From Escherichia phage Ptacy1537: a stretch of DNA of 43,020 nt. The translations under genes and the position numbers were made by a program. The notes beneath the pieces were generated by a model, which worked only from the letters and a program-made list of their open reading frames with translations, was not told the DNA's origin and made no database searches. Of the stretch, positions 2,571 through 43,020 are shown piece by piece; position 1 is the first letter of the stretch; every line of letters starts with the position of its first letter. The DNA lies in sequence record PQ863254.1; one strand, written 5' to 3'.

Positions 2571-3149
2571 ATGGGTATCAAAACTCGCGTAGGCTACTGC
2601 TCTGTAGCCGTCGTCCTGGCCCTGGTCAGTACCAACCACCCAGGGGAGATTCGAACCTCTAAGGAGGGCCTGGAGCTCCTCTCTGGTTATGAGGACTGCC
2701 GCACACAGGCATACCTGGACATCGTAGGAATCCCTACGTGCGGTATTGGCAGCACCTCCGGTGTCCGTATGGGCACTACCTGGACAGAGGCACAGGTGGC
2801 AGCTGCGTTCGTTAAGGACGTACAGGCGGCAGAGAAGTGCGTCCTCGTGTACTTTAACGGATACGCCATGCCGCAACCGGTGTTCGACTCTGTGACCTCT
2901 CTGGTGTTCAACACCGGATGCTGGGGTGCACGCTGGAACAACAAGCTGAACCGCCCGACTGGCATTGCTCAGTACGCTAAGGCGGAGGACTGGCAGAATG
3001 TGTGTTACAGATTGGGTGACTTCATCTACGCTGGCGGGAAGGTCTCTAATGGCCTAAAGAACCGTCGAGCTAAGGAGCAGGCTCACTGTATAAAGTGGCA
3101 AGTACCACAATCCTATGAGGGTTCCAGATGGACTCCAAATCCCCGTTGA
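2571..3149 (+). CDS. SAR endolysin (T4/P1 lysozyme-like muramidase, GH24)
   Basis: N-terminus is a weakly hydrophobic G/A/S-rich stretch (VGYCSVAVVLALVST) followed by EGLELLSGYEDCRTQAYLDIVGIPTCGIG, matching the catalytic E-D-T region of P1 Lyz / P21 R type signal-arrest-release endolysins. Confidence 0.75.
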   Translation: MGIKTRVGYCSVAVVLALVSTNHPGEIRTSKEGLELLSGYEDCRTQAYLDIVGIPTCGIGSTSGVRMGTTWTEAQVAAAFVKDVQAAEKCVLVYFNGYAMPQPVFDSVTSLVFNTGCWGARWNNKLNRPTGIAQYAKAEDWQNVCYRLGDFIYAGGKVSNGLKNRRAKEQAHCIKWQVPQSYEGSRWTPNPR

Positions 3150-3511
3150 TTAAACTGGCCGTAGTCGGCGCTGTATTGGTCGCTATGGTTATCCCGTCAT
3201 TAGTCGGGTATCACTACTACGGTAAGGTGGCAGTGCTCAAGCAGAGCGTTAAAGACCTCACCGACGACCTCGTCCATACCCAGGATACACTGGAGGCCAC
3301 CCTTGAGGGTGAGCAGCGTGCTAACCTGGCTTTATCCGAGCTTCGCAAGAAGAAGGGCTTAACCGATGCTGAACTTCAAAGTGCAAAATCCGAGCTGGAG
3401 CGTATTCACCTTCGCAACCCAGGCAACAATTGTCCTGTATTGCCTGCTGTCGCTGACAGGCTGCGGGCAGCAAACGACCAAGTACGTAAGAGTGGCTCCC
3501 TACGTCCCTGA
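3128..3511 (+). CDS. Rz-like inner-membrane spanin (i-spanin)
   Basis: 127 aa. N-terminal transmembrane segment (LIKLAVVGAVLVAMVIPSLVGY) followed by a charged coiled-coil region. Overlaps the endolysin stop. Confidence 0.6.
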   Translation: MDSKSPLIKLAVVGAVLVAMVIPSLVGYHYYGKVAVLKQSVKDLTDDLVHTQDTLEATLEGEQRANLALSELRKKKGLTDAELQSAKSELERIHLRNPGNNCPVLPAVADRLRAANDQVRKSGSLRP

Positions 3512-3662
3512 GAGCCTCTATGACCCGTGCACTCCACCAGCCTTACCTGAGGGTGTACTTGACCAGTTAATCATTGAGCAGCACGTCCTGGACCTCTATG
3601 GGACCATCTCAGGCTGCAATGATGACAAGGCTGAAATCAAGAAGCTACTCAGCGGTAAATAG
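3366..3662 (+). CDS. Rz1-like outer-membrane lipoprotein spanin (o-spanin), overlapping Rz in the +1 frame
   Basis: ORF starts inside the Rz gene in another frame and runs past its stop. Hydrophobic signal ends in lipobox LSLTGC; the mature part is Pro-rich (PYVPESLYDPCTPPALPEG). Confidence 0.5.
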   Translation: MLNFKVQNPSWSVFTFATQATIVLYCLLSLTGCGQQTTKYVRVAPYVPESLYDPCTPPALPEGVLDQLIIEQHVLDLYGTISGCNDDKAEIKKLLSGK

Positions 3663-4927
3663 TTGCCCGTTACAGTGCACTCCTCTTCCCGACTGGTGAG
3701 TGTACTGTTGCGGCCCAATTATGGCATAAAATTGTATGACCGGAGCGACCCTCGCGACACCCCTCGCTTCCCCCATAGGCCCTCCGCTTTGCACCATCGT
3801 GGAGCATTGGGCCGCCTCCGGGCACCTGGGCCTGCACTGGCAGGGCCATCATGGGCACCTATCGTGTGAGCTCCTGTAACTCCCTGTGCGACACTGTAGG
3901 CCATCACCGCTACCTACGTATCACCGTCTGGCTAATCGCCAGCCGTAGGGCCGCATAGGGCCATCTATCAGCTACTGGTTATCATCACTACTGCCTTATC
4001 GTTTATCAGAGTCGGACAAGGTAGACTCAAGGGTTATCATAGTCGGTCTGTTTAGCAGAGTGAGTACCATCACTCAGAGATTATAGTGTAGCTGAGTCCT
4101 TACTATAGCCGGGGAGTGAACCAGTGTCAACCCTATCTTATGACTATCTCACTACTCATTGTGTCGGGAGTGTCCTATTGTGTTAGACACGCGCTTAGCG
4201 TGGCTGTGCCCTTCTCTGTGCTCTTCCTATCGTGTGACAAGGGTAAGCCCTATCTCATACCTATCGTGCACTCACATTGCTTTATAGCGGCTCTTATTGT
4301 GTGTACAGGGGCGGGCTATCTGTATCCCTGTTTGCCAGCTCATCACACTGTTAACACATACCGTCTAACCATAGGGATAACCTGAGTCATACCCTACCAG
4401 TGACCTATCATCACACCTATCAAGCTATACACTGTATCCATAGTCTAATCGCCTATGGTAAGCACATAGTGATTCTACCGTTGAATATAAACATATCACA
4501 GATAGTGAGTACCTATCTGTCCACTACTAGCTCCACTGTCTAATCGCCAGTGGCTAACGTCCTATTCGTAGTCCTCCGCTACGCTCCGTACATACTCACT
4601 TCTGATACAGATAGAGAGAATTGTAACATACGTTACTACCTACCTATCCCTACCTGTAAGGCCCATTGCTTCGTTCTGTGCTCATAGAGTATGACGAATC
4701 AAACAGCACAGAGCCTGCACTCACAGTGCCTTAAATATAATCCTATTGAATACATACACTTAGCAATTAATTCGAATTTATTTGCAAATAACGCTTGCGC
4801 TTTTAGTCGGCTATACCCTATCATTCAATCACACCGCAGCAATCAGGCGGCAAGCAGTAAGAAGTACCGCTCTTTAACAATATGGTCATAGTATAGTGTG
4901 TCCTCTCAGGAGTATAGGGGATGATAC
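3663..4927. other. Large non-coding region, probable physical genome-end / terminal region in a circularly opened assembly
   Basis: No credible ORF (only short, overlapping, hydrophobic or low-complexity ORFs). Visibly lower GC, many CCTATC-type short repeats and three CTAATCGCC hairpins. Lies between the lysis cassette and the early promoter, where T7-like genomes have their ends. Confidence 0.5.
3928..4553 (+). repeat. Three hairpins sharing a CTAATCGCC core with different complementary stems
   Basis: 3928-3942 CTGGC-TAATC-GCCAG; 4438-4458 CCATAG-TCTAATCGC-CTATGG; 4533-4553 CCACTG-TCTAATCGC-CAGTGG. Stems are perfect inverted repeats that differ in sequence while the loop core is kept. Confidence 0.6.
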
Positions 4928-5299
4928 ATGACACTAAGCAAAGTACAACAAGCCGCGAACAAACAGGCCCAACGGTTAGCCAAACAGGCAGCCCGACAGG
5001 CCCAGAGTACCACAGAGCGTGCCCGTGCTGTGGCCTTGTGCAAAGCTGGCTCCTCAAAGGCTGGCAAGGCGGAGGCCCGCAGGATGGAGCTTGGAAAGCT
5101 GGCGTATAGTAAGACGGTCGGCGGTATGAATTATGCGGTGGATGCACGCAAGCAGCGCAAGCAGGATAAGCCCGCCGCCGCGAAGTACACTAAGCAAACA
5201 GACTTTGGTACACGTACCGCTACCTACGGTAGCAAGACAGATGCAACGGTTAACAGTTACCGCCGGGCTAAATCAGGCGATAACCTGCCACGTAAATAG
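4928..5299 (+). CDS. Hypothetical basic low-complexity protein (doubtful gene)
   Basis: 123-aa K/R/A/Q-rich ORF upstream of the early promoter. Weak RBS. Could be spurious. Confidence 0.3.
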   Translation: MTLSKVQQAANKQAQRLAKQAARQAQSTTERARAVALCKAGSSKAGKAEARRMELGKLAYSKTVGGMNYAVDARKQRKQDKPAAAKYTKQTDFGTRTATYGSKTDATVNSYRRAKSGDNLPRK

Positions 5300-5312
5300 T
5301 TTAAATAAATGC

Positions 5313-5341
5313 TTGACATTAACGAGGATGCACCATACTAT
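5313..5341 (+). promoter_or_regulatory. Candidate host sigma70-type early promoter
   Basis: TTGACA (5313-5318), 17-nt spacer, TACTAT (5336-5341). Sits upstream of the early gene block on the coding strand. Confidence 0.45.
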
Positions 5342-5868
5342 GACCATACAGACAGCGGAGACCGACACGGCAAACAACGTTAGGTGAGTCTCCAATGTTT
5401 GGGCCTTGCACTCGCAAGCGCTTTTGTGAAAGAGACTTTGATGTACACATTGTGGAAGTACCCAGCACAGAGGAAACTCCGGTGATGGGAAGTGGAAGGT
5501 GCTTAAGTGCGATTGCCACGAGGAACCGCGATGGGGAAGCGTAGTATAGGGACGATAACCCTTTAAAGATATCAGGCCGGGTGAGATGGTAGGTCAGTTA
5601 TAAAATCCATCGATAATAGTGTTTGGCGAGCATTCCCTCCACCGAACGGGAGAAATCGCATCCAGCGTCACTGAGCGGGACAAGTCTCAAACGTATTGGA
5701 TTAACATCTGCTCCTGAGTAGGACGGGTAACGCGGTTAGCGCATGGTGACACTGTGAAGTGGTTCGATGCAATGCTTGACGCCTACCGACGCGAAAGGGA
5801 GCGGGTTAACATATGAGTATTCAATGGTGAGTATTCATACCTTTAACCAAACGATGAGGATTTACAAA

Positions 5869-6429
5869 ATGGCTACTACCAAAACCGCTAAAGCTACCAA
5901 AACCACTTCTGATTTCGTCAAGCTGGCTATGATTCCGGCTGATTTGGATAAGGCGATTGACCGTGTGTGTGTCGCTTCCAAGACGCTGCAATCTGACATC
6001 CACGATGTGGCCGTGGCTATCATGGTTCACACCTACAACCACAACGATTTCAGCAAGGCACAGACCCTTGTCGATGGCCTGGGTGAGGGTGTGCGCCGTG
6101 GTGCTCTGGTTGAGTGGTTCCAGGCCGCAGGTCTGAAGGTAAACGCTGAGGCTGGCGCTTTCTCTGGCTTCAACAAGGCCAAGATGGAAGATAAGTGGGA
6201 TAAGGTTAAATCCACGCCGTGGTATACCATGAAGCCGGAGCGCCCGTTTGCTGGCTTTGACCTGATGGCTGAGCTTGAGCGCCTGCTGTCTAAGGCTGAG
6301 AAGGCGACTAAGAAGAACGCCGACACGCCGGAGGACCAACGTGCTGAGGGTTACACTTTTGTGTGCGATGCCGACAAGCTGGCCGCCCTGCGTGCGATGA
6401 TTCACCCGGCAACGCAGACTGTTAACTAA
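5869..6429 (+). CDS. Early hypothetical protein
   Basis: ATG at 5869 with GAGGA 8 nt upstream (chosen over the 5767 start in the ORF track). 186 aa, no recognised domain. Confidence 0.6.
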   Translation: MATTKTAKATKTTSDFVKLAMIPADLDKAIDRVCVASKTLQSDIHDVAVAIMVHTYNHNDFSKAQTLVDGLGEGVRRGALVEWFQAAGLKVNAEAGAFSGFNKAKMEDKWDKVKSTPWYTMKPERPFAGFDLMAELERLLSKAEKATKKNADTPEDQRAEGYTFVCDADKLAALRAMIHPATQTVN

Positions 6430-8139: not shown

Positions 8140-8199
8140 TGGTTTGCCGAAGGGCCTGCACTCGCGGGCCTTTTATCAATATCACTGTGGAGTTATGAG

Positions 8200-22282: not shown

Positions 22283-24778
22283 GTGGCTACACTCGCAGAC
22301 CAATTGGCGTTTGAAATCAAGCACCGCGACCTCGGCCGTGAACGTATGGCGGCTATTATCCAGTCAGCTGGGGAGCAGGGTAGATTGACAGACACGCCGT
22401 TGGGTACGGGTGTGCTCCGTCGATACCTGCAACGCCTCTCTGAAACCATCTCACTGGACATCACTGAGGAGCTGGGCGTACCGGGCCGCTCTAAGCAGTA
22501 CGCTGTATTGCTGAAGAACATGGACCCGGACGTACTGGCCCTGGTGTCTCTGGATACCGTCATCGAACATCTTGAGATGAGCGATGAGGAGGAGGATTCA
22601 GTACCCCTGGGTAGTATGGCATCTGCGATTGGCCGGGCTATTCACAGTGAGATTATCTTGACGGAGTTCAAGGACATATCGCCGGACTTATACGAGGTAC
22701 TGACTAACAGCCTCAAGTCGCGAATGAGCAAGAACCTCCGGCACAAGATGGCAGTGTACAAGATGCAGGCCGCTGAGCAAGGTCTGGTTCTGCCAGAGTG
22801 GACGACGGCACAGCGTGCACAGGTCGGCTCATACCTCATCGGTCTGCTGATTAACATGGGTGTGCTGGAACAGTTCACACGTTGGATTAAGCGCAAGTCC
22901 GTATACTGTGTCTCGCTGGGTACGGATGTGGTCGAATTGATGGAGGCCATCAGGGAGCGCGTAATTGAGCGCTCAGGCTTCGCAGCACCCTGCCTAATAC
23001 CACCGGAACCCTGGACCGGAGAAGAGGGCGTAGGGGGCTTCCACGGAGCTCTGAAGCTACGTGCCCCTCGCTTCTTCAAAGGAACATCCGAGCAGCTGGA
23101 GATAATGCAGACGGAAGGGTGTGACCTGACCACCACCCTGGCCGCGTTGAATTTCCAGCAGAGGGTAGCATGGAAAGTCAACCCATTCGTGCATAAGCTG
23201 GCCCTGTTAATGCTCCAGTACCGCTACGAGTTGAAGAAGTCAATCACTTCGGTGGCGTACTACCCGAAGCCTGACAGGCCCGAGTGGCTCGACCTCTGCG
23301 ACGATATGTCCAAGATATCGCCGAGGCAGAAGGAAGAGTTCGACAAGTGGAAGCTGGCCACCCGAGACTGGCACACAGAGAACAAGAAACGTGCCCGCAT
23401 TGAGGTGCGTATGCGCTTGGCCCTGGCAGCTGCGCGGGACTTCGGTGAGCTTGAGCGCTTCTACTTCGTATGCCAGGCAGATGACCGGGGCCGGGAATAC
23501 TTCTGCTCCGGGCCGCTTAACCCGCAGGGAAGTGACCTACAGAAAGCCCTGCTGCACTCCGCAGTAGGTGGGCCTGTAGACACTCCAGAGGCTGTGTTCT
23601 GGTTTAAGCTAAACATCGCCACGAAGTATGGCATTGACAAACTGGCTCCGGCCGACTGTATAAAATGGGTGGATGATAACCATGACAACATTATCTCGGC
23701 GGCGGCTGACCCTCTTAATCGCGAAGCATTTGACTGGTGGGCACAGGCCGATAAGCCGCTACAGTTTATCGCGGTGTGCGACGAGTATCGCCGTTGGGTT
23801 GAAGACCCTGTGGGTTTTGAGGCTCGAATCGCAGTCTCTATGGACGGGACGTGTAACGGCCTTCAGAACTATTCCGCGCTACTTAGGGACCCCATTGGTG
23901 GACGCGCTACGAATCTCATTAGCGCCGAATCTGGAATACCTAATGACATATACGGTGACGTGGCCCTCGCCGCTTTTAAGAGGCTCGAAGCTGACGTGGG
24001 CGGAATTTACAGACCCGGCTGGCTACTACACGGATTCAACCGAAAGCTGACGAAGCCGTCGGTCATGACCCAGGTGTACGGCTCGACGTTCGGTACGTGT
24101 CGCAAGTCCATTGTGTCGTACTGTGTAGAGCGGGCGCTGTTTGAGGATGAGCAGTATGAGCACGCTGATTACGCTGCACGTCTGGTCTGGGAAGGGATTG
24201 GAGATGTTGTTGTTGCAGCACGGGAATGTATGGAGTGGCTACGCAAGTGTGCCGGACTCATTATGGCTGAGGGTGCTGAGTTCATATCCTGGCCTGCTCC
24301 TTCGGGATTCAGGGTAGTCCAGGTGTACCGCAAGCCAAAGCTGGTGCAGGTAAGGGCGCACATCGGCAAGAGTGTGTCATATGCAATCCAGGTGGCGGTG
24401 GATGACACCGACGACCAGGACAAGATTCGACACCGAAATGCCTTCCCACCCAATTTCATCCACAGCGTCGACGCAAGCCACTTAGCAATGGTGGCTGTGG
24501 GTATGGGTTCCCTACATGAACAGATGCGCTTAGAGGGCCGCCTATCGAAGATTTGGGCTAATGAAAGTGTGTTCCTGCACTTCATCCATGACGACTTCGG
24601 TGCATTGCCACATATGGCGGCTGACTTGGCACGCATAATTCGTGAGAAGTTTGTTGAAATGCACGAGAATTATGACATTGAGTCTATCAGAAAGGACTAC
24701 TGGTTCCTCCCAGAATCTCCGAAGAAAGGCTCATTAGATATTCGTTGTGTACTCGACAGTATTAACTTCTTCCGTTGA
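22283..24778 (+). CDS. Single-subunit DNA-dependent RNA polymerase (T7 RNAP-like)
   Basis: 831 aa. GTG start with AAGGAG 6 nt upstream. C-terminal region has the T7 RNAP-type motif IHDDFG and the palm-domain FIHSVDASH. Confidence 0.9.
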   Translation: MATLADQLAFEIKHRDLGRERMAAIIQSAGEQGRLTDTPLGTGVLRRYLQRLSETISLDITEELGVPGRSKQYAVLLKNMDPDVLALVSLDTVIEHLEMSDEEEDSVPLGSMASAIGRAIHSEIILTEFKDISPDLYEVLTNSLKSRMSKNLRHKMAVYKMQAAEQGLVLPEWTTAQRAQVGSYLIGLLINMGVLEQFTRWIKRKSVYCVSLGTDVVELMEAIRERVIERSGFAAPCLIPPEPWTGEEGVGGFHGALKLRAPRFFKGTSEQLEIMQTEGCDLTTTLAALNFQQRVAWKVNPFVHKLALLMLQYRYELKKSITSVAYYPKPDRPEWLDLCDDMSKISPRQKEEFDKWKLATRDWHTENKKRARIEVRMRLALAAARDFGELERFYFVCQADDRGREYFCSGPLNPQGSDLQKALLHSAVGGPVDTPEAVFWFKLNIATKYGIDKLAPADCIKWVDDNHDNIISAAADPLNREAFDWWAQADKPLQFIAVCDEYRRWVEDPVGFEARIAVSMDGTCNGLQNYSALLRDPIGGRATNLISAESGIPNDIYGDVALAAFKRLEADVGGIYRPGWLLHGFNRKLTKPSVMTQVYGSTFGTCRKSIVSYCVERALFEDEQYEHADYAARLVWEGIGDVVVAARECMEWLRKCAGLIMAEGAEFISWPAPSGFRVVQVYRKPKLVQVRAHIGKSVSYAIQVAVDDTDDQDKIRHRNAFPPNFIHSVDASHLAMVAVGMGSLHEQMRLEGRLSKIWANESVFLHFIHDDFGALPHMAADLARIIREKFVEMHENYDIESIRKDYWFLPESPKKGSLDIRCVLDSINFFR

Positions 24779-24870
24779 TTCGTAATACTCTATGTACGGC
24801 TGACGATTAGTCAGACGATATACAGTGTTATATTATGTGTTATTAAGTGAGTATAATTAATTAATAATCT

Positions 24871-39424: not shown

Positions 39425-41680
39425 ATGGACAAGTCTACCCTTGAATGGATGACGTCGGATTCTACAGAACCAGATTACCTTACTATGGTTACGTACACTG
39501 CCGACGGCACTACGGACCAATACGAGTTTAACTTCCCAGGTGGCTACCTGAACAAGGCGGACATTAAAGCGTACATGTTCGACCCAGCAGGCGTTGTCCG
39601 TACGGACCTTACTGTAGCGTTCATTGCTGACAACATTGTTAAGCTGACCCCGGAACAGGCGGCCGGTAACTTAGTCACCATCTACCGCGACACTCCAAAA
39701 GAGCTGCCGCTGGTTAGCTTTACCGACGGCGCTATGATTGAGGCTCGCAACCTTGACCGTAACGCAAAGCAGTGTATCTTCGCCGTCGCTGAAATCCTGG
39801 ACAAGTACAATATCGTGTACAGCCAGGTAGAGCTGGCGGAGCGATATGCAACTATTGCCCGAGACGCGGCGGATACCGCAACAACCCAGGCCGAGTTCGT
39901 CGCCTACATTTACGAGCGGTTTAAGATTACCGACGAGATGATGGCGGAGATTAACCGTGCACGTGATGACGCGCAGTTTGCAGCAGGCCGGTCCGAGCAG
40001 GCCCAAGACGCCGCTGAGCGTGCGCGTGATGCAACGGAAGCTCTGGCCACAAGTGCTGGAATCTTCCAGTCTATTGCAGCGGGCCTTGCAGGCACCTCCA
40101 CCGGCCAATACTTCACGGTAGGGCAGGGTGTGGATTCCGAGACGGCTGCCATCACGTACCTGAACGACAACGGTACGGCTGTGCCTGTATTCAAGACGGC
40201 GGGTACTCAGGCGTATGTAAACCTGAATAAGAGGTTTATGGACGTATTCCTGGAAGGCACCTACGGTAACGCACTCGCCGGTTTCGTGGATGACGAGGAC
40301 AACTCGCCGCTGTTTATCGACGACAAGGGCGAGGTCGTAATCAATGACATCAACTTCCTGAAACAGGTGCAGGACATCATTAACGAATTGGTAGCAATTC
40401 GTAACGTGTTCATCTCTGAATCAGACAGCTACATCCAGAAGGGTGGATTCATGGATGATGAAGGCAAGCTGCCTATCTACTTCGACGAGAAGGGTGATGT
40501 GTGGCTGGGAGATGGCCCGGTTAACCTGACTCAGTTCGTAAAAGAGGGCGACCCCGTTCTGGCTAACCGCGTGCTGGCTTTAGAAACTCAGTATGCACGC
40601 CTGAATGATAAGTTCTTCGAGGCGGATTCAGACTACAGCCAGGTAGCAGGCTTCGTTGATGATGAAGGCAAGCTGCCCCTGTATGTGGACAAGTTTGGTG
40701 ATGTTTGGATTGGCGCAGGTCCGGTTAACCTTAGCGAGTTCGTTAAGAGCGGCGGCGGCATTCCTTCTGAAGAGTTCACTGCATTGAAGGCGCAGGTGGC
40801 CAACCACGAGCGTGCCATCTATGGAACGGGCAACATCGTCTGCGAAGGCGATTCCCTGACTGCCGGTGCCGGTGCGGTATCCCGTACTGGTTATGTAGAG
40901 CGCCTTCGTGCCCGCCTACAGTCCCAGGGCATTGTGGTGACTAAGCGTGCAGTCGGAGGCACGGGCTCTGCATCCATCGCAACCCGACAGGGTGGTTATG
41001 TTAACCTGCTGACGCTGGAGAATAACAGCATCCCAGCTGCCCGCGTCCCGGTTAATATCCTGTCCAGTACGCAAACACCAATCACCAACCAAGGCGGTGG
41101 CCCTATCAAGGGTACTATAATGGGTATTCCTGGTGTAGTTGCTGCTACCTTCTCGGGAACTGAGCGTACCTCCTACACCTTCACTCGCGACGTGGCAGGC
41201 ACCGTGGCCACCTACGTGGACCCGGAGACCCCGTTCATCAAACAGCGGGATGGTATGGAGGGCGACATCGCTATCCTGTGGCCGGGCCGCAACGACACAT
41301 GGCGCACCGATATGGGTGACGAGGTAATGAATGCGGTTGACGCGATGGTGGCTCACCTGGTATCCCAGCGTAAGCAGTTCGTCGTAATGTCCGTGCTCAA
41401 CGGTGAGTATGTTAACGAGTACAAAGGCGGGCCAGTATACGACCGCATCCTGGGCTATAACAACCGCCTCAAGTATAAGTACCCGGAGCAGTATTGCGAG
41501 ATTCGTAATGTCCTGGTACGTGCATACGACCCAAGCAAACCGCAGGACGTGCTAGACTTCCAGCATGATATCCCACCAGCCAGCCTGCGTGCGGACGGCA
41601 TTCACCTGCTGGACCCTGGCTACGACATCGTTGAAGAGACTGTGTATACCCATCTCAAGAACAGAGGATTAGTTAAATAA
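39425..41680 (+). CDS. Tail fibre protein: T7 gp17-like N-terminal adaptor domain, three internal repeats, C-terminal SGNH/GDSL hydrolase domain
   Basis: N-terminus (LVSFTDGAMIEARNLD) parallels T7 gp17 (LVDFTDGSILRAYDLN). Three 68-aa repeats (GF(V/M)DDEGKLP...GDVW(I/L)G.GPVNL..FVK). C-terminal IVCEGDSLTAGAG ... DGIHL matches the SGNH esterase catalytic Ser block and Asp-x-x-His block. Confidence 0.75.
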   Translation: MDKSTLEWMTSDSTEPDYLTMVTYTADGTTDQYEFNFPGGYLNKADIKAYMFDPAGVVRTDLTVAFIADNIVKLTPEQAAGNLVTIYRDTPKELPLVSFTDGAMIEARNLDRNAKQCIFAVAEILDKYNIVYSQVELAERYATIARDAADTATTQAEFVAYIYERFKITDEMMAEINRARDDAQFAAGRSEQAQDAAERARDATEALATSAGIFQSIAAGLAGTSTGQYFTVGQGVDSETAAITYLNDNGTAVPVFKTAGTQAYVNLNKRFMDVFLEGTYGNALAGFVDDEDNSPLFIDDKGEVVINDINFLKQVQDIINELVAIRNVFISESDSYIQKGGFMDDEGKLPIYFDEKGDVWLGDGPVNLTQFVKEGDPVLANRVLALETQYARLNDKFFEADSDYSQVAGFVDDEGKLPLYVDKFGDVWIGAGPVNLSEFVKSGGGIPSEEFTALKAQVANHERAIYGTGNIVCEGDSLTAGAGAVSRTGYVERLRARLQSQGIVVTKRAVGGTGSASIATRQGGYVNLLTLENNSIPAARVPVNILSSTQTPITNQGGGPIKGTIMGIPGVVAATFSGTERTSYTFTRDVAGTVATYVDPETPFIKQRDGMEGDIAILWPGRNDTWRTDMGDEVMNAVDAMVAHLVSQRKQFVVMSVLNGEYVNEYKGGPVYDRILGYNNRLKYKYPEQYCEIRNVLVRAYDPSKPQDVLDFQHDIPPASLRADGIHLLDPGYDIVEETVYTHLKNRGLVK

Positions 41681-42453
41681 TGGGCAATTTCATCAAGATT
41701 GGCACCACCCTGACCAACCCGAACATCACCAAGCTGACTCGGGATTCACTCATTGATGCCAACACCGTATTTATTGCGGACCTGAGCCGCAAGGCATCCA
41801 ACCCGGCGCAGGTGGACCTGTCCAACGGCAATCTTCTGTATAACCTGACTAACGGTGGCCTAAACGCCACCACCATCACGGGCACTAAGATTCCGTTCTC
41901 TGCGGCGGGTAAATATCTCACCAAAGAGGTTGGCGATATCTCGTCCCGTATCCAGCTGCCGGACACCTGTAAGGTGCTCGCTACCGACAACAGCTTCCAG
42001 TTTACCCTGTGGTTTACTGAGCTGGCCGGACAGGATACTACGGGCTCTCAGGGTCTGGCAGGATACGCATCAAACTCCAGCAACCAGATGGCCTTCGCGT
42101 TCTACTGGTTCGATGGCCAGTATTTCCTGGGTTGTGCGGGGAACCGGCACCCAATCGCAACACCTGCTGTAGGCGCAGTAAGCCAGTTGACGGTGGCCTG
42201 TGACCGTAATCTGGGAATCCGTAAGTATTACTACAACGGGGCCCTAGTGCGTTCTGAGACCAATCAGGTTATCAATGATATGCCTATTCCGGTAGCTGGT
42301 TCTAACCCGTGGCTGTTCTACCTGGGCGGTGGCTTCAACTCCCGCCGCAACGTTAAGCTGCACCGTGTATGGTTGGATGTAAACGGCCCCGGCGATAACT
42401 TTGACGCCAAAGTAGTTCGCGACTGGAACGAGAACAAACTTAAATTCGTATAA
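41680..42453 (+). CDS. Hypothetical tail-associated protein (possible lectin-like or receptor-binding accessory protein)
   Basis: 257-aa ORF, TAATG-coupled to the tail fibre gene. Composition suggests a beta-rich fold. No firm domain call. Confidence 0.5.
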   Translation: MGNFIKIGTTLTNPNITKLTRDSLIDANTVFIADLSRKASNPAQVDLSNGNLLYNLTNGGLNATTITGTKIPFSAAGKYLTKEVGDISSRIQLPDTCKVLATDNSFQFTLWFTELAGQDTTGSQGLAGYASNSSNQMAFAFYWFDGQYFLGCAGNRHPIATPAVGAVSQLTVACDRNLGIRKYYYNGALVRSETNQVINDMPIPVAGSNPWLFYLGGGFNSRRNVKLHRVWLDVNGPGDNFDAKVVRDWNENKLKFV

Positions 42454-42459
42454 GGACCT

Positions 42460-42648
42460 GTGATGTGGCTGATTGATGACCTCCTGGACCGGGCGGGGCC
42501 CCTTCCGGGGGTCACGGTATCCGGTGTTACTCTGTTAGGGCTTAACCTACAGACTACGGTGTATGTTCTTACTATCGTATACCTGGTACTGCAAATTGGC
42601 CGCTTTATTTGGAAGTGGCTTGACGAATGGAGAGGTAAAGATGACTGA
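42460..42648 (+). CDS. Putative holin (pinholin candidate)
   Basis: 62 aa. Hydrophobic segment VTLLGLNLQTTVYVLTIVYLVLQIGRFIW followed by a charged C-terminus. Lies just before small terminase, as T7 gp17.5 does. Confidence 0.5.
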   Translation: MMWLIDDLLDRAGPLPGVTVSGVTLLGLNLQTTVYVLTIVYLVLQIGRFIWKWLDEWRGKDD

Positions 42649-43020
42649 CTTCGAAGACGACCTGCCTGAGAAGTCCCCGGACGAGCTCGACAAGATTGCT
42701 GAACAGGAGAAGAAGGATGCTGAGTTCCTCGAAAGACTGTCCAACATGTCTAACGAAGAGTTAGCCAAGCTCCTCCTGAATAATTCCCTGAAGCAGCTCC
42801 TGGTTACTATAAACAAGGGCTGGGCCACTGCGTCGGATATAAACACCGCCCGACAGTTTCTCAAGGACAACAACATCGGCATTGTACCTACCCGCAGTAA
42901 TGCTGCTGGGGCCCTCCAGAAGAAGCTCAAAGAACGTGCAGATGCTGCAAAGGACGGGGCACACCATAACGTTGCTGACCTCGACAACGTGGGTATCGAT
43001 GACTTTATTCAGAGGCACTA
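42641..43020 (+). CDS. Terminase small subunit (T7 gp18-like), 3'-truncated at the window end
   Basis: ATG at 42641 opens a frame with no stop before the window end. The pattern resembles the remembered T7 gp18. Probably continues across the circular junction towards position 1. Confidence 0.5.
   Translation, partial: MTDFEDDLPEKSPDELDKIAEQEKKDAEFLERLSNMSNEELAKLLLNNSLKQLLVTINKGWATASDINTARQFLKDNNIGIVPTRSNAAGALQKKLKERADAAKDGAHHNVADLDNVGIDDFIQRH

Follow-up and report, generated by a model that had tools for sequence, protein, structure and literature searches.

A gene-free gap in the genome of Escherichia phage Ptacy1537 as the probable concatemer junction of a T7-like phage, carrying one copy of its predicted terminal repeat

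The records of phages T7, T3, SP6, phiKMV, phiR8-01, phi80-18, and GP-4 carry direct terminal repeats at both ends, and the collapse of such repeats is a documented artefact in short-read assemblies of T7-like phages. For phi80-18, the ends were found by ligation of a known fragment to virion DNA (ligation-PCR) and sequencing (PMC7316996), and for GP-4, the repeat was called by PhageTerm on Illumina reads (PMC11486747). In T7, the sequence ATCTGTT at the concatemer junction is a class II pause and termination signal of the RNA polymerase that has been linked to packaging, and the paused polymerase, together with lysozyme, has been reported to interact with gp18 and gp19, starting maturation and packaging. 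Here, we analyze the 43,020-nucleotide sequence deposited as PQ863254.1 for Escherichia phage Ptacy1537 (hereafter the window) and, within it, the gap between the lysis genes and the early region at positions 3663–4927. An earlier note on this DNA had read the window as a circularly opened assembly and proposed that the true termini and a direct terminal repeat lie hidden in this gap. Our comparisons support that proposal. The window is very probably the complete genome of a T7-like Klebsiella phage (Autographiviridae, Melnykvirinae) that was assembled as a circle and rotated to the large terminase gene, and the gene-free stretch would be the concatemer junction with one copy of the terminal repeat. 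The genome ends and the collapsed repeat lie, in all likelihood, between 3663 and 4927.

The two terminase genes reveal the state of the assembly. The large terminase (TerL) gene occupies 1–1914 on the + strand, with its open reading frame (ORF) beginning at base 1; a large-terminase start is a common convention for phage contigs. The small terminase (TerS) gene (42641–43020, + strand; PF11123, phrog_9441) begins at 42641 and reaches the last base. Its stop codon, TAA, consists of the final ‘TA’ of the window (...CACTA) and the ‘A’ of the TerL ATG, and GP-4 has the same one-base overlap between the two genes. With the TerS stop codon divided between the two ends of the window, a circularly rotated assembly is confirmed, as the earlier note had deduced from TerL at base 1 and TerS running off the 3′ end. 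A self-comparison of the window found neither a second copy of the repeat nor any long direct repeat, which, together with a TerS stop that spans the window ends, is the pattern of an assembly with a collapsed repeat.

The gene content is that of a T7-like phage. TerL, the enzyme expected to cut the repeat boundaries, is of the T7 type (PF22530 Terminase-T7 RNaseH-like domain, E 1.4e-32; phrog_38, phrog_17672), and TerL and the genes downstream of it are 87.9% identical to those of GP-4. The T7-type terminase pair is accompanied by a single-subunit RNA polymerase gene at 22283–24778 (PF00940/PF14700) and by genes on one strand (the window is collinear with GP-4, in which all genes are on the + strand), and the predicted repeat sits in the noncoding gap that runs from the end of Rz1 at 3662 to the start of the first early ORF at 4928. 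Each sequence-level feature that we tested for the class of phages with short exact terminal repeats was found here.

To place the ends, we relied on relatives, which were searched for by megablast and blastn among 50,697 phage records. Six Klebsiella phages with ~77–86% identity over the region were found: KYP, K59PH2, Y10, 6937, Kpn1-P3, and GP-4. The four whose records give full taxonomy (KYP, K59PH2, 6937, and GP-4) belong to Autographiviridae, Melnykvirinae. Cronobacter phage GAP227 (NC_020078) gave a short match to the region. Searches for exact matches to the Rz1 protein and to the product of the first early ORF found no contig on record, leaving no assembly breakpoints to compare, and IMG/VR scans with the junction sequence returned GAP227 itself only. 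GP-4 (PP454754), which is ~86–88% identical to the window and collinear with it from end to end apart from the tail-fibre region and some of the early genes, is the only relative deposited as a linear genome with both ends, annotated as identical 584-bp repeat_regions at 1–584 and 43104–43687. The records of the five other relatives (41.7–43.4 kb) hold one repeat copy each, like the window, and GP-4 minus one repeat measures 43.1 kb against 43.0 kb for the window.

Nucleotide 1 of GP-4 (GCGACCCTCG...) aligns to 3745 and its nucleotide 584 (...GGGGCGGGCTA) to 4318, and the boundary motifs are conserved. This end-to-end alignment predicts a direct terminal repeat of 574 bp, present in one copy at 3745–4318 on the + strand (right end ±1). 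The junction would thereby consist of 82 bp of right-end unique sequence (3663–3744), the repeat, and a 609-bp left-end leader (4319–4927). Virion DNA is predicted to be linear, starting at 3745 with GCGACCCTCG..., ending at 4318 with ...GGGGCGGGCTA, and bearing the repeat at both ends, and its predicted length is therefore 43,020 + 574 = ~43,594 bp. We consider it likely that the exact ends are at 3745 and 4318 (±1). In the GAP227 record no terminal repeat is annotated, and the record starts and ends inside the left-end leader, at a point ~150 nt beyond the right edge of the predicted repeat; judged by the conserved boundary motifs, the GAP227 repeat would be 41256–41647 of that record (392 bp).

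The left boundary is conserved well beyond the level of its surroundings. In a seven-phage alignment of the junction with an overall identity of ~80%, the segment 3693–3754 is invariant and straddles the boundary, whatever the upstream gene (Rz1 or an extra 189-bp ORF). The predicted left end opens with GCGACCC, the start common to the GP-4, phiR8-01, and phi80-18 records (phi80-18 starts with GCGACCCT) and the one expected in Melnykvirinae, and has TTCCCCCATAGG at nt 24; the whole left-terminal motif, GCGACCCTCG...(23 nt)...TTCCCCCATAGG, spans 3745–3779 on the + strand. With a slash marking the cut, the left junction ...GACnGGTA/GCGACCC... also occurs, in the same register, in GAP227 and in phiR8-01, whose 385-bp repeat is annotated (phiR8-01, ...tgcgggccaaatttgatatagttatgcgagacggta/GCGACCCCGCGCGACACG...; window, ...tgcggcccaattatggcataaaattgtatgaccgga/GCGACCCTCGCGACACC...). 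The register extends to more distant phages: CCCCATAG has its first base at nt 27 in T7, GP-4, phiR8-01, and the end predicted for the window, at nt 28 in phi80-18, at nt 29 in SP6, and at nt 30 in T3, and phiKMV has CCCCGTAG at nt 27 in its place. A C-rich ..(A/G)TAG motif ~24–30 nt from the left end is therefore shared by the window and phages of this class.

The right-end unique block to the left of the cut (3663–3744, + strand) is noncoding and contains a hairpin and an A+T-rich patch (3717–3739), and is a candidate terminase recognition region. T7, T3, SP6, and phiKMV likewise have an A+T-rich patch, 12–30 nt before the cut. The hairpin, which lies directly 3′ of the last stop codon at 3672–3708, has an 11-bp stem and a 15-nt loop (stems 3667–3670/3710–3713 and 3672–3682/3698–3708), a DNA folding energy of –12.2 kcal/mol, and a z score of –2.7, and among the relatives its stem is invariant and its loop variable. 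No counterpart was found in GAP227, phiKMV, or T7, and SP6 has a weak adjacent-arm palindrome only; with no clear counterpart in these phages, the hairpin is taken as lineage-specific. We do not claim it as a T7-type ‘hairpin intermediate’ site, given the lack of a counterpart in those three phages. The extra 189-bp ORF between Rz1 and the conserved block is carried by GP-4, 6937, and Kpn1-P3 and is absent from the window, K59PH2, Y10, and KYP, and the conserved block starts right at the stop codon with or without it (3628–3658 in the window versus 3797–4018 in L002).

At the right boundary, the 11-mer CTATCTGTATC at 4316–4326 (+ strand) contains the predicted cut CTA/TCTGT and is invariant in the seven phages and in GAP227. 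The wider context, GGGCTA/TCTGTATCC, is likewise invariant in the seven phages and present in GAP227. The same arrangement stands at the end of the 174-bp repeat of SP6, GGGCTA/TCTGTTCG (GGGCTA/TCTGTT), and close versions mark the right boundaries of T7 and T3, GTGTCCCT/ATCTGTTA (CCCT/ATCTGTT), and of phiR8-01, GGGCTAT/CTGTATCC. At the level of sequence, CTATCTGT is thus present and invariant at the right repeat boundary, where this class of phages would be expected to have it. By analogy with T7, CTATCTGTATC at 4316–4326 is probably both the cut site and a class II-like signal at which the phage RNA polymerase pauses. Outside the region, ATCTGT occurs twice on the sense strand against ~9 expected under an order-3 Markov model (P ~0.007), and its reverse complement is as frequent as expected (12 versus 12.4); the sense-strand rarity fits avoidance of a signal to which the phage’s own polymerase responds. 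The only other exact copy of the 11-mer in the window is inverted (4604–4614, – strand). Both copies are invariant in the seven phages, as is CTCACTTCTGATACAGATAGA around the inverted one.

Several points weigh against this placement of the ends or against the role given to the right boundary. The ends of this phage are inferred from those of its relatives, and the authors of the GP-4 study called the PhageTerm termini tentative, their library having been tagmentation-based (PMC11486747). Repeat length varies widely in the subfamily and differs greatly between Melnykvirinae genera (325, 385, ~392, and 584 bp). The right cut is one base apart among phages, falling after CTA in GP-4 and SP6, after CTAT in phiR8-01, and after CCCT in T7 and T3, and position 4318 is therefore good to about one base. 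The signal in the window is ATCTGTA, not the ATCTGTT of T7, and for the T7 polymerase any base change in the signal is reported to abolish class II termination; a pause role for the window’s own polymerase is therefore only putative. Finally, the boundary motif is not universal, as phiKMV has no TCTGT at its right boundary (GGCTAG/CCTTGCC).

Some of these points would suit an arrangement in which the ends do lie in the gap but the repeat is shorter or longer, or the cuts fall more than one or two bases away from 3745 and 4318. Such an arrangement could also draw on ACAGTGCAC at 3673–3681, ~70 nt upstream of the predicted cut, which resembles the first bases of the T7 left end (CACAGTGTAC). We regard displaced boundaries as improbable, since the blocks that contain the two GP-4 boundaries do not vary among seven close relatives and since the register agrees with independent ends, namely the GCGACCC start in phiR8-01 and phi80-18, (A/G)TAG at nt 27–30, and CTA/TCTGT in SP6.

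The earlier note had described the gap as ~1.25 kb without genes between the lysis genes and the early promoter. The gap measures 1265 bp, and no other stretch of the window that lacks a long + strand ORF is as large. It is bounded by an Rz1-like ORF (3366–3662, phrog_456), upstream of which lie an Rz-like ORF (3128–3511) and the endolysin gene (2571–3149), and by the first early ORF (4928–5299, phrog_9286). One could suppose that missed small protein-coding genes hide in it, given mechanical ORFs of 41–89 aa on both strands and a 37-aa leftward ORF annotated near the left end of phiR8-01. Five ORFs scanned in the gap (3663–3869, 4116–4385, and 4691–4891 on the + strand, 3670–3858 and 3719–3907 on the – strand) had no match to a PHROG family, and the relatives carry indels of 1, 2, 10, and 29 nt that break the frames, conservation being concentrated in short motifs and not in ORFs. 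The six annotated relatives all leave the gap essentially without genes, and we give hidden genes next to no weight. A scan of 3400–5900 against Rfam at E ≤ 1 gave no match.

The short repeats that the earlier note had seen in the gap are real and unusually dense. Of 17 copies of CCTATC on the + strand of the window, 10 lie in the gap, which makes up 2.9% of the sequence, and the – strand has none genome-wide; CCTATC is the top enriched hexamer of the gap (Poisson ~8e-14). The 10 + strand copies (3858, 4132, 4226, 4249, 4260, 4404, 4416, 4512, 4643, and 4817) form an array spanning 3858–4822, a counterpart of the CCTAAAG arrays of T7. The two examples quoted in the earlier note are present, each starting one base before the position given (4131 and 4248, not 4132 and 4249). 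Its comparison with the short-repeat arrays of T7 is apt because CCTATC is enriched and strand-specific, though the match is incomplete: such repeats stand by the terminal repeat, as in this class, but within and to the right of it only, not on both sides. The low GC content that it attributed to the stretch holds for 4319–4927 (0.43) and not for 3745–4318 (0.54 versus 0.55 for the genome), and this description was therefore half right.

The gap is also rich in candidate regulatory elements. Inside the repeat, a leftward sigma70-type promoter, TTGACA-17-TATAGT (4102–4130, – strand), matches 11 of 12 consensus positions and resembles promoter A0, for which T7 and T3 have leftward annotations; the seven phages all keep its hexamers, and GAP227 has a corresponding site. 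Further right, an A+T-rich and nearly invariant block at 4735–4830 (+ strand) is the probable early promoter region. The earlier note had placed a sigma70-like promoter between the gap and the early genes. The best rightward candidate immediately before the first ORF, TTGCGC-18-TATCAT at 4795–4824, is weak (8/12), and the strong rightward site, TTGACA-17-TACTAT at 5313–5341, occurs 3′ of the first early ORF. The global minimum of the cumulative G–C curve falls at 4844.

These promoters, the A+T-rich block, and the skew minimum would fit a gap that serves only as a regulatory or replication-origin region, in a phage that packages by the headful mechanism (circularly permuted) or has its ends elsewhere, and a physical end is not provable from sequence alone. 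Against such a gap stand the terminase, which is of the T7 type and not of a headful type, and GP-4, the closest relative with a termini analysis, which has fixed ends and a repeat at the same place. The window moreover has, in register, the terminal motifs known from phages with determined ends, and no other sizeable noncoding stretch of the window has such motifs. A purely regulatory gap is thus very unlikely, and we retain a concatemer junction with one repeat copy as the explanation.

In addition to host-type promoters, the junction contains a putative promoter for the phage polymerase. The motif GATTCGTCATACTCTATGAGCAC at 4678–4700 (– strand) is leftward, phage promoter-like, and conserved in the relatives, and the inverted CTATCTGTATC copy lies 70–80 nt downstream of it. 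Rightward copies of this 23-nt motif, with a consensus of about TGATTCGTCATACTCTAAGAACA, stand at 24870, 28187, and 39377, in the gaps that precede late genes, and a weaker one at 24782; over the whole window, the phage-promoter motif has four matches within three mismatches against none expected, namely the leftward copy and the three stronger rightward ones. In register, TGATTCGTCATACTCTAAGAACA is identical to the T7 promoter at 12–14 of 23 positions (chance of ≥14, ~0.0004), and it resembles the phi80-18 promoter consensus TGAT(T/a)(c/g)TCTACCCATATAG.... The rightward copies, probable phage RNA polymerase promoters, follow the RNA polymerase gene or precede the major capsid gene and the tail-fibre gene. 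No phage promoters were reported in the GP-4 paper (PMC11486747). GP-4 carries the same phage-promoter sites as the window. The left-end copy points leftward in this lineage (4678–4700, –; L012 947, –) and rightward in phi80-18 and phiR8-01 (L021 352, + and L022 470, +). A whole-window scan with the 16-nt core (≤4 mismatches) gave no + strand match in the stretch from the repeat to the first ORF, although phi80-18 and phiR8-01 have a rightward phage promoter just after the repeat. By eye, GTCATAC near 4385 is a loose match, which we do not claim as a rightward phage promoter. Another candidate, GCCTGCACTCGCAGAC, has 10 matches against 0.7 expected, all on the + strand; most are in genes, in an Ala-Leu-Ala frame, and two are in terminator stems, and it was rejected. 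Strings of GCACTCGCAGAC, which resembled the promoter motif, recur in genes in the Ala-Leu-Ala frame and are probably a codon-level coincidence. Two terminator-like hairpins, at 8154–8169 and 5404–5418, have the loop or stem sequence GCACTCGC in common.

The repeat and the leader also contain small hairpins of one type. One in the repeat, CTGGC-TAATC-GCCAG (3928–3942, + strand), has similar CTAATCG-loop counterparts at 4438–4458 and 4533–4553. Within 31 nt around 3928–3942, the only variable columns are two stem pairs, both changed on both sides among the relatives, and one stem pair of the 4438–4458 hairpin is changed on both sides. With 3–5 distinct sequences, this covariation is not significant (61 of 500 shuffles, with three distinct sequences).

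At the far end of the gap, a 25-nt inverted repeat flanks the first early ORF, with its left arm at 4881–4905 (+ strand) and its right arm at 5324–5348 (88% complementary). The right arm overlaps the strong promoter at 5313–5341. GP-4 and K59PH2 have an analogous 35-nt inverted repeat (89–91%) around a different first ORF (L001 1150–1184/1549–1583; L005 1901–1935/2301–2335), and none was found around the first ORF of GAP227. The inverted repeat may represent a duplicated promoter that faces outward or, alternatively, a long-range RNA stem around gene 1, and the first early gene seems to have been exchanged together with the inverted-repeat arms. In the six Klebsiella relatives, the first ORF is a different gene, without homology to that of the window (phrog_9286). 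Elsewhere in the window, 39850–42463 is the only long stretch without detectable nucleotide similarity to GP-4. It covers the tail-fibre/receptor-binding genes, and a different capsule specificity is therefore likely. An internal direct repeat of 114 nt with 73% identity is found within it (40429–40542/40633–40746).

If the junction works as that of T7 does, replication would produce concatemers with one repeat per junction, and the phage RNA polymerase, moving rightward, would pause at ATCTGT at the right edge of the repeat. TerS and TerL would then be recruited and would cut at both boundaries, and DNA synthesis would duplicate the repeat, giving two copies per packaged genome. A further possibility, which we consider doubtful, is that the left-end phage promoter turned toward the genome end (4678–4700, – strand), together with the inverted CTATCTGTATC, would have the polymerase stopped on both sides of a 277-bp zone at 4327–4603. 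This zone carries the CTAATCG-loop hairpins at 4438–4458 and 4533–4553. Were a two-sided stop to operate, it could yield a short leftward RNA (~85 nt) priming replication of the left end, or a two-sided pause marking the packaging site, and either outcome would be an undescribed variant of the T7 junction mechanism.

For curation, the assembled sequence would be a rotated circle that is ~574 bp short of the real linear DNA and whose true start would be 3745; we recommend re-orienting the genome and annotating the repeat. Correctly placed ends bear on species-level identity calculation, on the synthetic rebooting or engineering of therapeutic Klebsiella phages, and on the comparison of packaging signals. 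More generally, terminal motifs that stay in register from T7 to Melnykvirinae offer a simple means of placing the ends of such phages from sequence alone when reads are missing.

Among known systems, GP-4 is the nearest. It shares with the window the genome order, ~82–89% nucleotide identity over most aligned segments, the boundary sequences, the leftward phage-promoter copy, the hairpins, and the CCTATC repeats, and differs in its tail-fibre genes, in its first early ORF, in the presence of the 189-bp ORF upstream of the repeat, and in a repeat that is longer by 10 bp. The Yersinia phages phi80-18 (325-bp repeat) and phiR8-01 (385-bp repeat) belong to the same subfamily and share the GCGACCC left end, CCCCATAG at nt 27–28, and four or five related phage promoters at equivalent places, and phiR8-01 also shares the whole cut-site context and the GGGCTATCTGTATCC boundary. 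In both, the repeat length differs from that of the window and the left-end promoter is rightward, 27–85 nt after the repeat, whereas the only clear copy in the window is leftward and 360 nt after it; phi80-18 further differs in its right boundary, TTA/TCTATT. The Pseudomonas phage phiKMV (414-bp repeat) resembles the window in gene order and carries TTCCCCCGTAGGCCC at nt 24, in a register identical to that of the window, and CCAATTTTGATAT ~30 nt left of the cut, but it has a different right boundary and no detectable nucleotide similarity elsewhere.

The concatemer junction of T7 and T3 comprises the terminal repeat, short-repeat arrays, A0, phiOL, and the class II pause signal. There, as in the window, the repeat sits in the gap that separates the last late gene from the early promoters. 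The window also has in common with them an A+T patch to the left of the left cut, a C-rich ..ATAG motif that lies ~24–30 nt into the left end (TTCCCCCATAGG in T7), and ...CTATCTGT... as the right boundary; short repeats that are strand-specific and a sigma70 promoter that points leftward, inside the repeat or close to it, are further shared features. In contrast to T7 and T3, the predicted repeat of the window is 574 bp long (versus 160/231 bp), starts with GCGACCC (versus TCTCA), and is cut one base to the right; the boundary signal is ATCTGTA and the repeat unit CCTATC (versus ATCTGTT and CCTAAAG), an array to the left of the repeat is absent, the phage promoter at the left end is leftward, and the RNA polymerase gene lies mid-genome, as in the phiKMV-like order. 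Aligned with these systems, the architecture of the gap reads as a standard T7-like genome end and as a direct homologue of the GP-4 repeat, and what sets the lineage apart is its long repeat (574 bp), the phage-promoter copy that points leftward, the leftward sigma70 promoter within the repeat, the inverted copy of the boundary 11-mer, and the CTAATCG hairpins.

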